In this document: positions 2,233 through 26,983 of the stretch, in pieces
Numbering within the stretch: the first letter of the stretch is position 1
Layout of the letters: the number at the start of each line of letters is the position of its first letter
Sequence record: OR780565.1
Source: Escherichia phage DCP2
Strand: one strand, 5' to 3'
Length of the DNA stretch: 64,000 nt
Program-made: the position numbers and the translations under genes
The notes under the pieces: model-generated
Told to the model about the DNA's origin: nothing
The model's database searches: none
The model's input: only the letters and a program-made list of their open reading frames with translations

Positions 2233-2378
2233 AAAGCAAAATTATAGCAGTGTTGCTTTTAATCTTGATGATTATAATAAGTATATACTATAGTGTAACG
2301 GTTCCTCTTATGATTCCAACTATTATTTTAGGTTGGGGTTTATTACTGTTACAAGTTAAATATGAATGTATCAATTGA
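2229..2378 (+). CDS. small hydrophobic membrane peptide (49 aa)
   Basis: ATG overlaps imm stop (ATGA-type overlap); 49 codons, strongly hydrophobic; below ORF-track length cut-off. Confidence 0.45.
   Translation: MKSKIIAVLLLILMIIISIYYSVTVPLMIPTIILGWGLLLLQVKYECIN
2252..2278 (+). promoter_or_regulatory. candidate MotA-dependent middle promoter upstream of gene 42
   Basis: TTGCTTTT MotA-box-like element about 12 bp upstream of TATAAT at 2273-2278; imperfect box. Confidence 0.3.
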
Positions 2379-2385
2379 GGTTTAA

Positions 2386-3126
2386 ATGATTAGTGACTCT
2401 ATGACAGTTGAAGAAATCCGTCTTCATTTGGGGCTTGCATTAAAAGAAAAAGATTTCGTAGTTGATAAAACCGGGGTTAAAACTATTGAAATTATTGGCG
2501 CATCATTTGTAGCAGATGAACCGTTTATTTTTGGCGCTCTTAATGATGAATACATTCAACGTGAACTTGAATGGTATAAGTCTCAAAGTCTGTTTGTTAA
2601 AGATATTCCAGGCGAAACGCCAAAGATTTGGCAACAGGTAGCATCTTCTAAAGGTGAAATTAACTCGAATTATGGTTGGGCTATCTGGTCAGAAGATAAC
2701 TATGCCCAGTATGATATGTGTTTAGCTGAACTTGGTCAAAATCCTGATTCTCGCCGCGGTATCATGATTTATACTCGTCCATCCATGCAGTTTGACTACA
2801 ACAAAGATGGTATGTCAGATTTCATGTGTACGAATACAGTACAGTACCTGATTCGTGATAAGAAAGTCAATGCAGTAGTAAGCATGCGTTCAAATGACGT
2901 GGTCTTTGGATTCCGTAATGATTATGCATGGCAAAAATACGTACTAGATAAATTAGTATCTGATTTGAATGCAGGTGATTCAACTCGTCAGTATAAAGCA
3001 GGTTCCATTATATGGAATGTCGGGAGCCTTCATGTGTATTCCCGTCATTTTTATTTGGTTGACCATTGGTGGAAAACTGGCGAAACTCATATTGCGAAAA
3101 AAGATTATAACGGTGAGTGGAAATGA
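2386..3126 (+). CDS. 42: dCMP hydroxymethylase gp42
   Basis: 246 aa; N-terminus MISDSMTVEEIRLHLG and thymidylate-synthase-like core match T4 gp42. Confidence 0.93.
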   Translation: MISDSMTVEEIRLHLGLALKEKDFVVDKTGVKTIEIIGASFVADEPFIFGALNDEYIQRELEWYKSQSLFVKDIPGETPKIWQQVASSKGEINSNYGWAIWSEDNYAQYDMCLAELGQNPDSRRGIMIYTRPSMQFDYNKDGMSDFMCTNTVQYLIRDKKVNAVVSMRSNDVVFGFRNDYAWQKYVLDKLVSDLNAGDSTRQYKAGSIIWNVGSLHVYSRHFYLVDHWWKTGETHIAKKDYNGEWK

Positions 3127-3965
3127 TTCAATTCGTAATTCCAAGTTATCAACGCGTAGGGGCAGTTTCTGCCCTTGATATGTTTCCGACTGATTATGAA
3201 CCTCATATTGTAGTACGTGAACACGAAGAAAAAGCTTATTATGACGCTTACGGGTCTAGAGCTAAAATTGTAGTTATTCCCGATGATGTAAATGGAATTG
3301 CTGGAACTCGTAAAGCAATTACTGATATGTATGCAGGTCAGCGAATTTGGATGATTGATGATGATACTACTATTCGTATGAGTTCAATGCGAAAGAAAGA
3401 TGATCGTCGCTGCGTAGATAAAATTAATCAGTTAACTCGTGAACAGTTCTATGAATTGATTCAATACGTTGAAGATGCCATGGATTGCGGGTATTATCAT
3501 GGTCATGCTCGTTTACCTATTTTTAAAATTACTTCATCTTGGGGTAATTATCGTGAAAATTCATATGGATTCACGAATACATGGTATGACCTTGGAAAAC
3601 TTACAACAGAACAAATTGGGTATGGAAAAATTGATTTATGCGAAGATATGTATGCATTTCTCAATTTAATTAATCAAGGTTATCCGCATTTGGCCTTGTT
3701 CAAATATCTGGTTGTATCCGGAAAAGCACAAGCTCCTGGCGGATGCAGCTCAATTCGTAGTAATTCTAAACATAATAGAGCTCTTGAGCAAATCAATAAA
3801 GAGTTTCCAGAGCAAGCTCGTTGGAAAACTTCTAATATTGAAAAACGAAAATCATTAGGTGAAGAAGACGAGCCATTAAAGGTTCTTCGCATGTGTGTTT
3901 CACGCAAAGAAAAGTCAGAAGCATTTCATAAGTTTAATGCTATTCATCCAATAGCAGTTGATTAA
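3117..3965 (+). CDS. putative DNA glycosyltransferase occupying the beta-gt locus (GT-A-like, DxD motif)
   Basis: 282 aa ORF between 42 and uvsX; IWMIDDDTTIR DxD-type motif; unlike T4 beta-gt (351 aa); likely the T2/T6-type beta-glucosyl-HMC-alpha-glucosyltransferase. Confidence 0.55.
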   Translation: MEMIQFVIPSYQRVGAVSALDMFPTDYEPHIVVREHEEKAYYDAYGSRAKIVVIPDDVNGIAGTRKAITDMYAGQRIWMIDDDTTIRMSSMRKKDDRRCVDKINQLTREQFYELIQYVEDAMDCGYYHGHARLPIFKITSSWGNYRENSYGFTNTWYDLGKLTTEQIGYGKIDLCEDMYAFLNLINQGYPHLALFKYLVVSGKAQAPGGCSSIRSNSKHNRALEQINKEFPEQARWKTSNIEKRKSLGEEDEPLKVLRMCVSRKEKSEAFHKFNAIHPIAVD

Positions 3966-3989
3966 TGCCTAAATTTATTGTGTTATAAT
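3964..3989 (+). promoter_or_regulatory. candidate middle promoter upstream of uvsX
   Basis: AATGCCTAA (one mismatch to MotA box) 11 bp upstream of TATAAT 3984-3989. Confidence 0.25.
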
Positions 3990-4042
3990 TACCCTATCTT
4001 TAACCAGTGAGGAAAATATAATGATGCCTATGGAAAAAATGA

Positions 4043-5224
4043 ATGTCTATTGCAGATTTAAAATCCCGTTTGATTAAAGCTTCCACTTCTAAAATGACTG
4101 CTGAACTGACTACATCTAAATTCTTTAATGAAAAGGATGTAATTCGTACAAAAATTCCAATGCTCAATATCGCTATTTCTGGTGCGATTGATGGTGGAAT
4201 GCAGTCTGGTTTAACTATTTTCGCAGGTCCTTCTAAACACTTTAAATCAAATATGTCTTTGACTATGGTTGCGGCGTATTTGAACAAATATCCTGATGCG
4301 GTTTGTTTATTCTATGATAGCGAATTTGGTATTACTCCAGCTTATTTGCGATCAATGGGAGTTGACCCGGAACGAGTAATTCATACACCAATCCAGTCAG
4401 TTGAACAACTGAAAATTGATATGGTGAATCAGCTTGAAGCTATTGAGCGCGGTGAAAAGGTTATTGTATTCATCGACTCAATCGGTAATATGGCCTCTAA
4501 GAAAGAAACGGAAGATGCCTTGAATGAAAAATCTGTGGCAGATATGACTCGTGCTAAATCACTGAAGTCATTATTCCGTATTGTTACTCCTTATTTTAGT
4601 ATTAAAAACATTCCATGTGTTGCGGTTAACCATACAATTGAAACAATTGAAATGTTTAGTAAAACCGTGATGACAGGTGGTACAGGCGTAATGTATTCGG
4701 CTGATACTGTATTCATTATCGGTAAGCGTCAGATTAAAGATGGTTCTGATCTTCAGGGGTATCAATTTGTTCTAAATGTAGAAAAATCTCGTACCGTTAA
4801 AGAAAAAAGTAAATTCTTTATTGATGTTAAATTTGACGGTGGTATCGATCCTTATTCTGGATTGTTAGATATGGCTCTTGAATTAGGATTTGTAGTAAAA
4901 CCTAAAAATGGCTGGTATGCTCGTGAATTTCTTGATGAAGAAACCGGCGAGATGATTCGCGAAGAAAAATCTTGGCGTGCAAAAGATACCAATTGCACTA
5001 CATTCTGGGGTCCTTTATTTAAGCATCAACCATTCCGAGATGCTATTAAACGCGCTTATCAGTTAGGTGCTATTGATAGTAATGAAATTGTTGAAGCTGA
5101 AGTTGATGAATTGATTAACTCAAAGGTTGAAAAATTTAAATCTCCAGAAAGTAAAAGTAAATCAGCAGCTGATTTAGAAACTGACCTAGATCAGTTAAGT
5201 GATATGGAAGAATTTAATGAATAA
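4043..5224 (+). CDS. uvsX: UvsX RecA-like recombinase
   Basis: 393 aa; matches T4 UvsX throughout (Walker A region GPSKHFKS). Confidence 0.93.
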   Translation: MSIADLKSRLIKASTSKMTAELTTSKFFNEKDVIRTKIPMLNIAISGAIDGGMQSGLTIFAGPSKHFKSNMSLTMVAAYLNKYPDAVCLFYDSEFGITPAYLRSMGVDPERVIHTPIQSVEQLKIDMVNQLEAIERGEKVIVFIDSIGNMASKKETEDALNEKSVADMTRAKSLKSLFRIVTPYFSIKNIPCVAVNHTIETIEMFSKTVMTGGTGVMYSADTVFIIGKRQIKDGSDLQGYQFVLNVEKSRTVKEKSKFFIDVKFDGGIDPYSGLLDMALELGFVVKPKNGWYAREFLDEETGEMIREEKSWRAKDTNCTTFWGPLFKHQPFRDAIKRAYQLGAIDSNEIVEAEVDELINSKVEKFKSPESKSKSAADLETDLDQLSDMEEFNE

Positions 5225-22719: not shown

Positions 22720-24537
22720 ATGATTAAGAATGAAATTAAAATTCTGAGCGATATTGAACATATCAAAAAGCGTAGCGGCATGTACATTGGTTCTTCTGCT
22801 AATGAAATGCATGAGCGCTTTCTGTTTGGTAAATGGGAAAGTGTTCAGTATGTACCTGGTCTTGTTAAGCTTATTGATGAAATTATCGATAACTCAGTAG
22901 ATGAAGGTATTCGTACTAAGTTTAAATTCGCAAATAAAATTAATGTTACCATTAAAAATAATCAGGTAACAGTTGAAGATAACGGTCGTGGTATTCCACA
23001 GGCGATGGTTAAAACACCTACCGGTGAAGAAATTCCTGGTCCTGTTGCTGCCTGGACTATTCCAAAAGCAGGTGGTAACTTTGGTGATGATAAAGAACGC
23101 GTCACCGGCGGTATGAACGGTGTTGGTTCTAGTTTAACTAACATTTTTTCTGTGATGTTTGTCGGTGAAACTGGCGACGGTCAAAATAATATTGTGGTTC
23201 GCTGCTCGAATGGCATGGAAAATAAATCATGGGAAGATATTCCTGGAAAATGGAAAGGAACTCGCGTTACTTTCATTCCTGATTTTATGTCATTTGAAAC
23301 TAATGAGCTATCTCAAGTTTATCTTGACATTACACTAGATCGTCTCCAGACACTTGCGGTAGTTTATCCTGATATTCAATTTACCTTTAATGGTAAAAAG
23401 GTTCAGGGTAATTTTAAGAAATATGCACGCCAATATGATGAACATGCTATTGTTCAAGAACAAGAAAATTGTTCTATTGCGGTTGGTCGTTCACCGGATG
23501 GTTTTCGTCAATTAACATACGTCAATAACATTCATACTAAGAATGGTGGCCATCACATTGACTGTGTTATGGATGATATTTGTGAAGACCTTATTCCACA
23601 AATCAAACGTAAATTCAAAATTGATGTAACTAAAGCACGTGTTAAAGAATGTTTGACTATCGTTATGTTTGTCCGTGATATGAAAAACATGCGATTTGAT
23701 TCTCAAACTAAAGAGCGTTTGACTTCTCCATTTGGTGAAATTCGTAGTCATATTCAGCTTGATGCTAAAAAGATTTCACGTGCTATTTTGAATAATGAAG
23801 CAATTTTAATGCCAATCATTGAAGCTGCTTTGGCTCGTAAATTGGCGGCAGAAAAAGCAGCAGAAACTAAAGCAGCTAAAAAGGCTTCTAAAGCTAAGGT
23901 TCATAAACATATTAAAGCGAATCTTTGTGGTAAAGATGCTGACACTACTCTTTTCTTGACTGAGGGTGATTCTGCTATTGGATATCTTATTGATGTTCGT
24001 GATAAAGAACTTCATGGTGGTTATCCATTGCGTGGTAAAGTTCTTAACAGTTGGGGTATGTCATATGCTGATATGCTTAAAAACAAAGAACTATTTGATA
24101 TTTGCGCAATCACTGGATTAGTTCTTGGTGAAAAAGCTGAAAACTTGAATTATCATAATATTGCAATTATGACCGATGCTGACCATGATGGTCTAGGAAG
24201 CATTTATCCTTCTCTGCTCGGATTTTTTAGTAATTGGCCAGAATTGTTTGAACAAGGAAGAATTCGCTTTGTCAAAACTCCTGTAATCATCGCTCAGGTA
24301 GGTAAAAAACAAGAATGGTTTTATACAGTCGCTGAATATGAGAGTGCTAAAGATGCTCTACCTAAACATAGCATCCGTTATATTAAGGGACTTGGCTCTT
24401 TGGAAAAATCTGAATATCGCGAGATGATTCAAAACCCAGTATATGATGTTGTTAAACTTCCTGAGAACTGGAAAGAGCTTTTTGAAATGCTCATGGGAGA
24501 TAATGCTGACCTTCGTAAAGAATGGATGAGCCAGTAG
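22720..24537 (+). CDS. 39: DNA topoisomerase II large subunit gp39, uninterrupted (605 aa)
   Basis: GHKL ATPase and TOPRIM regions in a single ORF that includes the part encoded by separate gene 60 in T4. Confidence 0.92.
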   Translation: MIKNEIKILSDIEHIKKRSGMYIGSSANEMHERFLFGKWESVQYVPGLVKLIDEIIDNSVDEGIRTKFKFANKINVTIKNNQVTVEDNGRGIPQAMVKTPTGEEIPGPVAAWTIPKAGGNFGDDKERVTGGMNGVGSSLTNIFSVMFVGETGDGQNNIVVRCSNGMENKSWEDIPGKWKGTRVTFIPDFMSFETNELSQVYLDITLDRLQTLAVVYPDIQFTFNGKKVQGNFKKYARQYDEHAIVQEQENCSIAVGRSPDGFRQLTYVNNIHTKNGGHHIDCVMDDICEDLIPQIKRKFKIDVTKARVKECLTIVMFVRDMKNMRFDSQTKERLTSPFGEIRSHIQLDAKKISRAILNNEAILMPIIEAALARKLAAEKAAETKAAKKASKAKVHKHIKANLCGKDADTTLFLTEGDSAIGYLIDVRDKELHGGYPLRGKVLNSWGMSYADMLKNKELFDICAITGLVLGEKAENLNYHNIAIMTDADHDGLGSIYPSLLGFFSNWPELFEQGRIRFVKTPVIIAQVGKKQEWFYTVAEYESAKDALPKHSIRYIKGLGSLEKSEYREMIQNPVYDVVKLPENWKELFEMLMGDNADLRKEWMSQ

Positions 24538-24566
24538 TTTACTTTACCACAAGGATGTGGTATAAT
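24537..24566 (+). promoter_or_regulatory. T4-type early promoter
   Basis: GTTTAC 24537-24542, TATAAT 24561-24566. Confidence 0.6.
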
Positions 24567-24591
24567 TAATTGGGCAAATGAGGATATTGAA

Positions 24592-24795
24592 ATGAAATCA
24601 TATAAAGTAAATTTAGAACTTTTTGATAAAGCAGTTCACCGAGAATATAGAATCATTCAACGCTTTTTCGATATGGGAGAAGCCGAAGAGTTTAAAAACC
24701 GCTTTAAGGATATTAGAGATAAAATTCAATCCGACACCGCAACCAAAGATGAATTACTAGAAGTTGCTGAAGTTATTAAACGCAATATGAATTAA
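24592..24795 (+). CDS. hypothetical protein (67 aa)
   Basis: GAGGA RBS downstream of promoter. Confidence 0.5.
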
Positions 24796-24805
24796 TGAGG
24801 AAATT

Positions 24806-26983
24806 ATGATTATCACCACTGAAAAAGAAACAATTCTTGGTAATGGTTCTAAATCAAAAGCATTTAGCATCACAGCATCTCCTAAAGTATTTAAAATTCT
24901 ATCATCTGATTTGTATACAAACAAGATTCGCGCAGTAGTTCGTGAATTGATTACCAACATGATTGATGCCCATGCTCTCAATGGAAATCCTGAAAAATTT
25001 ATCATTCAAGTTCCAGGACGATTAGATCCGCGATTTGTTTGCCGAGATTTTGGTCCGGGTATGAGCGATTTTGATATTCAGGGTGATGATAATTCTCCTG
25101 GGTTGTATAATTCATACTTCAGTTCATCTAAGGCTGAATCTAACGATTTCATTGGTGGATTTGGTTTAGGTTCTAAATCTCCGTTTAGTTATACTGATAC
25201 GTTTAGTATTACTTCGTACCATAAAGGTGAAATTCGCGGTTATGTAGCTTATATGGATGGTGACGGTCCGCAGATTAAACCTACATTCGTAAAAGAAATG
25301 GGTCCAGACGATAAAACTGGTATTGAAATCGTAGTTCCAGTTGAAGAAAAAGACTTTAGAAACTTTGCTTATGAAGTTTCTTATATCATGCGACCATTCA
25401 AAGATTTGGCTATCATTAATGGTCTTGACCGTGAAATTGATTATTTTCCGGATTTTGATGACTATTACGGCGTAAATCCAGAAAGATACTGGCCAGATCG
25501 TGGTGGATTGTATGCTATCTATGGTGGTATTGTTTATCCTATTGATGGTGTTATTAGAGACCGTAACTGGTTAAGCATTCGCAATGAAGTGAATTATATT
25601 AAGTTTCCAATGGGTTCACTTGATATTGCTCCATCACGTGAGGCTCTTTCACTAGATGATCGTACTCGTAAAAATATTATTGAGCGTGTTAAAGAGCTCA
25701 GTGAGAAGGCATTTAATGAAGATGTAAAACGATTTAAAGAATCTACATCTCCTCGTCATACATACCGTGAATTGATGAAGATGGGGTATTCTGCTCGAGA
25801 TTATATGATTAGTAATTCGGTCAAATTCACGACTAAAAATCTGTCATATAAAAAGATGCAGAGCATGTTTGAACCTGACAGTAAGTTATGCAATGCAGGG
25901 GTTGTGTATGAAGTAAATCTTGACCCTCGACTGAAACGCATTAAGCAAAGTCATGAAACTTCAGCCGTTGCATCAAGTTATCGTCTGTTTGGTATTAACA
26001 CAACAAAAATTAATATCGTTATTGATAATATTAAAAATCGTGTTAATATTGTCCGTGGATTAGCACGTGCGTTAGATGATAATGAATTTAATAACACCTT
26101 AAATATTCATCACAATGAACGCCTTTTGTTTATTAATCCGGAAGTAGAATCACAGATTGATTTGCTTCCTGATATTATGGCAATGTTTGAAAGTGATGAA
26201 GTTAACATTCATTATTTGTCAGAAATTGAAGCTTTAGTTAAAAGTTATATTCCAAAGGCAGTAAAAAGTACAGCTCCTCGTCCTAAAGCTGCCACTGCAT
26301 TTAAGTTTGAAATTAAAGACGGGCGCTGGGAAAAAGAGGAGTTGTTTACACTTACGTCAGAAGCAGATGAAATTACTGGTTATGTAGCATACATGCATCG
26401 TTCTGATATTTTCTCTATGGATGGTACTACATCGCTTTGTCATCCATCTACGAATATTTTGATTCGTATGGCTAATCTTATTGGCATTAATGAATTTTAT
26501 GTTATTCGTCCGCTTTTGCAGAAAAAGGTAAAAGAACTTGGTCAGTGCCAATGTATTTTTGAAACTTTGCGTGATTTATATGTAGATGCTTTTGATGATG
26601 TAGATTATGATAAGTATGTAGGTTATTCAAGTTCAGCTAAACGATATATTGATAAAATTATCAAGTATCCTGAGTTAGATTTTATGATGAAGTACTTCAG
26701 TGTAGATGAAGTTTCCGAAGAATATACACGACTCGCTAATATGGTTAGTTCATTACAGGGTGTATATTTTAATGGTGGAAAAGATACCATCGGTCATGAC
26801 ATCTGGACGGTAACTAATCTTTTTGATGTATTATCAAATAATGCTTCAAAAAACAGTGATAAAATGGTTGCTGAGTTTACCAAGAAATTCCGTATTGTTT
26901 CCGACTTCATCGGTTATCGCAACTCTTTAAGTGATGATGAAGTTTCCCAAATCGCTAAAACTATGAAGGCCCTTGCGGCCTAA
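24806..26983 (+). CDS. rIIA: rIIA protein
   Basis: 725 aa; N-terminal GHKL-like ATPase motifs; matches T4 rIIA. Confidence 0.92.

Follow-up and report, generated by a model that had tools for sequence, protein, structure and literature searches.

The sugar carried on T-even hmC helps to predict sensitivity to sugar-specific defences, which raises the question of what glucosyltransferase Escherichia phage DCP2 encodes downstream of gene 42, the slot that in T4 holds b-gt (351 aa) followed by the homing endonuclease gene segA. We addressed this question in a 64-kb stretch of the phage genome (64,000 nucleotides of record OR780565.1, hereafter the window). The ORF at 3123-3965 is very probably an orthologue of the T2/T6 beta-glucosyl-HMC-alpha-glucosyltransferase (ba-gt, g-gt, TAGT; PF20691) that serves the gentiobiosyl pathway proposed below. 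The gene is already known, as its fold, locus, distribution and product have all been published, again in papers of 2024-2026, and this copy is typical of the family. The T2/T6 enzyme was reportedly described decades ago, by Winkler and Rueger in 1993.

Locus, start codon and flanking signals

In the ORF listing of the window, the maximal frame runs on the plus strand from a GTG over positions 3117..3965 and encodes 282 aa. It lies in the gene order 43 - imm.1 - imm - 42 - ORF - uvsX - 40 - 41, and Pfam searches identified both flanks. The upstream ORF (246 aa) belongs to the thymidylate-synthase family (PF00303, E=1e-15) and corresponds to gene 42, while the downstream one, at 4043..5224, matched PF21134 (E=5e-39) and PF00154 (RecA) and corresponds to uvsX. 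The initial annotation had placed the ORF between genes 42 and uvsX, as these flanks confirm. The order from 43 to 41 is identical in T2, T6 and P8, and the ORF occupies the syntenic slot in place of the T4 b-gt. The features of the locus are listed in the table.

Features of the ba-gt locus (window coordinates)
Feature	Coordinates	Strand	Evidence
Gene 42, dCMP hydroxymethylase, overlapping the glucosyltransferase start	2386..3126	+	PF00303; gp42 annotation in T2, T6, T4 and P8
Shine-Dalgarno-like GGTGA within the end of gene 42, 6-nt spacer to ATG 3123	3112..3116	+	Sequence inspection
Two extra codons (GTG GAA) of the maximal ORF, probably untranslated in this protein	3117..3122	+	T2/P8 start; no Shine-Dalgarno sequence
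Probable ba-gt / g-gt / TAGT CDS, 280 aa plus stop	3123..3965	+	ORF; T2/P8 start; identity; PHROG 842; PF20691
D79-D80-D81, DxD-type motif	3357..3365	+	Invariant in 12 homologues; follows model strand 74-77
E174-D175, candidate catalytic-base "ED" motif	3642..3647	+	Invariant in the alignment; start of model helix 174-184

Although the ORF first reported at 3117-3965 is real, its length of 282 aa is a mechanical maximum. The stop codon of gene 42 (TGA, 3124-3126) and an ATG at 3123-3125 share the sequence ATGA, and an 843-bp CDS encoding 280 aa from this ATG is annotated in T2 (LC348380) and P8. Because both of these phages carry that start in their annotation, the glucosyltransferase likely begins at ATG 3123 and comprises 280 aa. 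The GTG at 3117 was rejected as a start, since the ATGA overlap, the spacing of GGTGA and the T2 and P8 annotations all favour the ATG; inspection of the sequence upstream of the GTG revealed no Shine-Dalgarno-like sequence. The GGTGA is invariant in T2, T6 and P8, and together with the ATGA overlap it suggests that translation of the glucosyltransferase may be coupled to that of gene 42.

Two annotation problems were seen among the neighbouring genes. In many RefSeq records, gene 42 appears as "thymidylate synthase" instead of dCMP hydroxymethylase, a family-level name that conceals the hmC pathway from readers of the annotation. The 189-aa ORF with a TTG start at 1404-1973 is a mechanical over-extension of imm.1, which the relatives T2, T6 and P8 annotate as 381 bp; the imm.1 start corresponds to the internal Met that begins MKIAILVIALGLTGC, which resembles a lipoprotein signal peptide.

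Regulatory and RNA features were also searched for around the gene. The region between ba-gt and uvsX (3966-4042) measures 77 bp and lacks segA. The sequence TGtTATAAT at 3981-3989 is what we take to be an extended -10-like element, and aaTGCCTAA at 3964-3972, 11 nt upstream, is presumably a MotA-box-like sequence; these elements would fit a putative T4-type middle promoter for uvsX. A sigma-70 promoter scan of 2300-4150 was uninformative (12 sites versus 8.0 +/- 2.6 expected). Within the ba-gt coding sequence, ~35 nt from its start, a GC-rich hairpin (GGGGCAG-TTT-CTGCCCT, 3157-3177, extended to 9 pairs) is invariant in T2, T6 and P8. It was rejected as a terminator, the scan having returned 1 site versus 0.8 expected, and the folding of 3105-3195 was not significantly more stable than that of shuffled sequences (z=-1.6) and gave no sign of a hairpin function.

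Identity, fold and motifs

Over its full length and without indels, the protein is 98% identical to that of T2 (LC348380), 97% to that of T6 (MH550421) and 99% to that of P8. It matched PHROG 842, "beta-glucosyl-HMC-alpha-glucosyltransferase" (E=1.3e-89, profile positions 3-269 of 270), and the PF20691 TAGT profile at 40.4 bits, above the gathering cutoff of 27.5 (E=4e-10; residues 5-209 on profile positions 2-205 of 205); its homologues carry precomputed PF20691 assignments. The T2/T6-type identity suggested by the initial annotation is thus upheld by sequence identity, by both profiles and by the shared slot. That annotation had also judged the protein unrelated to the 351-aa T4 beta-gt, and indeed BLASTP against the latter gave E=3.3 with a longest aligned piece of 35 aa. 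The comparison with T4 alpha-gt likewise gave no similarity (E=0.56), and a diverged T4-type enzyme is ruled out by these two results.

Searching the PDB by sequence yielded no structurally solved relative, the best matches (E ~1) being spurious and His-tag-like, and the fold was therefore taken from a model. Two rounds of word-indexed homologue search yielded 15 proteins, down to 37% identity and short of the wider TAGT family; 12 homologues were aligned and AlphaFold2 was then run. The resulting model (mean pLDDT of 88.5, pTM of 0.88) has an N-terminal half of alternating beta and alpha elements and lower confidence near residues 201-210 and 241-250. Foldseek returned 173 matches in the PDB at E<=1e-3, and the top ones were all GT-A nucleotide-sugar transferases (K4CP, TarP, TarS, WrtF, RmlT, LARGE1 and KfiA), with a probability of 1.00 and a TM of ~0.5. 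The protein is therefore predicted to form a single Rossmann-like alpha/beta/alpha nucleotide-sugar-binding domain matching solved GT-A structures, and not a two-domain GT-B fold. The earlier proposal of a GT-A-like enzyme, which hinged on a glycosyltransferase fold being detectable, holds in this model. For the T6 TAGT, an AF3 model has been reported to adopt a GT-A fold that is sister to GT2, and the T2/T6 enzyme has been equated with PF20691 (PMC13216743).

The IWMIDDD motif pointed out at the outset is present, within RIWMIDDDTTI. Its three aspartates are conserved in 12/12 homologues, down to 37% identity, and their place directly after a strand of the model is the canonical DxD site at the C-terminal end of beta4; they may act in metal/UDP-Glc handling. 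By analogy, E174/D175 could well correspond to the "ED" catalytic base of inverting GT2 enzymes, a reading that would fit an enzyme turning UDP-alpha-glucose into a beta linkage.

Predicted DNA product and its extent

In the pathway that we propose, gp42 would make hm-dCMP, the polymerase would put hmC into DNA, and an alpha-glucosyltransferase from another part of the genome would add an alpha-linked glucose to hmC. The ba-gt product, a GT-A enzyme of the DxD type that is probably inverting and GT2-like, would then add a second glucose from UDP-glucose, beta-1,6 to the first, yielding alpha-gentiobiosyl-hmC. Because a T4-type beta-gt is absent, hmC skipped by alpha-gt, roughly one quarter to one third of the sites, would stay unglucosylated, and beta-glucosyl-hmC would not be formed. 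For the chemistry, the effect of a knockout and the composition by LC-MS we rely on published work on near-identical enzymes, which would by analogy support beta-1,6 transfer of glucose from UDP-glucose to alpha-glucosyl-hmC. T6 without ba-gt contains only alpha-glucosyl-hmC, and its DNA then becomes degradable by the glycosylase Brig1 (PMC11078745). Ten wild Tequatrovirus isolates encode an alpha-GT and a TAGT "at the position syntenic with" T4 beta-GT, and HPLC/MS of their DNA detected 5-hmdC, alpha-glc-mdC and alpha-gent-mdC but no beta-glc-mdC, in ratios of ~1:2:2 or of approximately one third 5-hmdC to two thirds gentiobiosyl (PMC13390438). In the literature on homologous ba-gt enzymes, ~25% of hmC is naked and beta-glucosyl-hmC is not found.

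The extent of gentiobiosylation in DCP2 is not predictable from sequence, because the T2 and T6 enzymes are near-identical, differing at only ~5 residues, yet the reported levels are ~5% in T2 and ~72% in T6, a 14-fold difference (PMC6024577, PMC11078745). It is conceivable, though unlikely, that ba-gt acts in DCP2 at a low, T2-like level, in which case the DNA would consist approximately of alpha-monoglucosyl-hmC and naked hmC with a few percent of gentiobiosyl-hmC, and the phenotype would differ little from that of a phage without the gene. T2 reaches only its low level with an intact enzyme that is 98% identical to that of the window, and the two proteins have Y40, D55 and R106 in common (N, G and H in T6). 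However, all ten of the wild isolates contained ~40% to ~67% gentiobiosyl-hmC by LC-MS (PMC13390438), a range that makes T2 look like an outlier, and H11 and S251, which occur only in T2, are replaced in the window protein by R11 and P251, as in T6 and P8.

Lesions were found in both public T6 records, different in each and probably causing loss of function; the copies in the window, T2 and P8 are intact. In MH550421 (L004, 2138-2980, minus strand), codon 10 is TAG instead of the CAA or CAG of the other copies, and the record consequently annotates ba-gt only from Met20. In AP018814 (L005, 2135-2974, minus strand), one Asp of the DDD is lost in frame (IWMIDD-TTIR), leaving 279 aa. Drift in laboratory stocks, counter-selection of the gene or errors in sequencing could account for these lesions. 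We consider it improbable that the substitutions at positions 11, 40, 50, 51, 55, 92, 101, 106, 226 and 251 include determinants of the 5% versus 72% difference and that the T6 lesions arose because ba-gt is repeatedly selected against in laboratory stocks; even if true, this would still leave the gene itself not new.

The proposed pathway depends on an alpha-gt outside the window. Searches of the 64 kb by tblastn returned nothing with the T4 b-gt query and nothing at E<1 with the T4 and P8 alpha-gt queries (E>4), and hence no second such glucosyltransferase is encoded there. This absence, along with the many phages in which a distant TAGT homologue stands alone, with neither alpha-GT nor beta-GT (PMC13216743), would agree with a genome devoid of functional alpha-gt, in which ba-gt would be idle or act on another acceptor such as hmC directly. 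We regard this as very improbable, as P8, T2, T6 and T4 all have alpha-gt upstream of gene 43, in the interval between gene 47 and gene 55, and by synteny that of DCP2 would be located ~9 kb before the first position of the window. Moreover, the solitary TAGTs are distant homologues and not 98% identical proteins. The first 20 kb of the window best matched vB_EcoM_BMB16 and vB_EcoM_P8 (Tequatrovirus), with 97.5% identity over 98% of the query, and both of these nearest relatives have alpha-gt. Finally, alpha-gt occurs in 544 phage records, approximately the sum of those with ba-gt (474 at >=90% nucleotide identity), those with T4-type b-gt (29) and more distant genera. Given 474 ba-gt records versus 29 for b-gt, the T2/T6 arrangement is the norm in the genus and T4 the exception. 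As a separate observation, KM607002 (RB55) and KM607003 (RB59) carry at ~24364-25419 a copy of T4 b-gt (GT-B, 351 aa; 100% identity) under the annotation "beta-glucosyl-HMC-alpha-glucosyl-transferase", which is what the unrelated T2/T6 enzyme is called; the records thus confuse one occupant of the locus with the other.

Transfer of another sugar or in another linkage than by the T2/T6 enzyme, for example through V50, V51 and K226, is scarcely credible: these three residues are unlike those of T2, T6 and P8 (K92 and I101 being shared with P8) and sugar specificity is unreadable from sequence, but they fall at positions that vary among homologues, none in an invariant or near-invariant column, and the protein is 97-99% identical to characterised enzymes.

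Defence sensitivity and comparison with known systems

A gentiobiosyl product of the T2/T6-type enzyme would bear on several defences. Brig1 excises alpha-glucosyl-hmC, and gentiobiosyl-rich T6 DNA is not degraded in vitro. BapA does not deglucosylate gentiobiosyl-hmC, and removal works after deletion of the gene (bioRxiv 10.64898/2026.02.25.707755). GmrSD targets both stereoisomers as well as gentiobiosyl-hmC (PMC13216743), such that GmrSD-type enzymes would still cut the modified DNA, and naked hmC would be exposed to Brig3 and McrBC-type systems. Our literature search turned up nothing that concerned gentiobiose and CRISPR specifically; the initial annotation had listed CRISPR among the affected systems. 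For annotation and phage therapy, the genome would fall into the common "alpha-gt plus TAGT" class.

Among known systems, the T2/T6 ba-gt genes share with the DCP2 copy the length of 280 aa, the ATGA overlap with gene 42, the slot between 42 and uvsX, and intact DDD and ED motifs. They differ from it by a handful of substitutions, and the window copy is free of lesions, unlike both public T6 records. The PF20691 TAGT family, with its GT-A fold sister to GT2 (e.g., TarP, TarS and SpsA), is matched over the whole 205-position model, including the fold and the DxD after beta4, whereas the window protein extends past the Pfam domain by a C-terminal stretch of ~70 aa (residues 210-280) and is only 8-16% identical to the solved GT-A structures. 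With T4 b-gt, the DCP2 gene has in common the slot downstream of gene 42, the hmC DNA pathway and, by prediction, the making of beta linkages. The two enzymes nevertheless lack sequence similarity, belong to different superfamilies, GT-B and GT-A (PMC13216743), and differ in acceptor, which is naked hmC for T4 b-gt and would be alpha-glucosyl-hmC for the T2/T6-type enzyme; in addition, segA separates b-gt from uvsX in T4 but is missing from the window.
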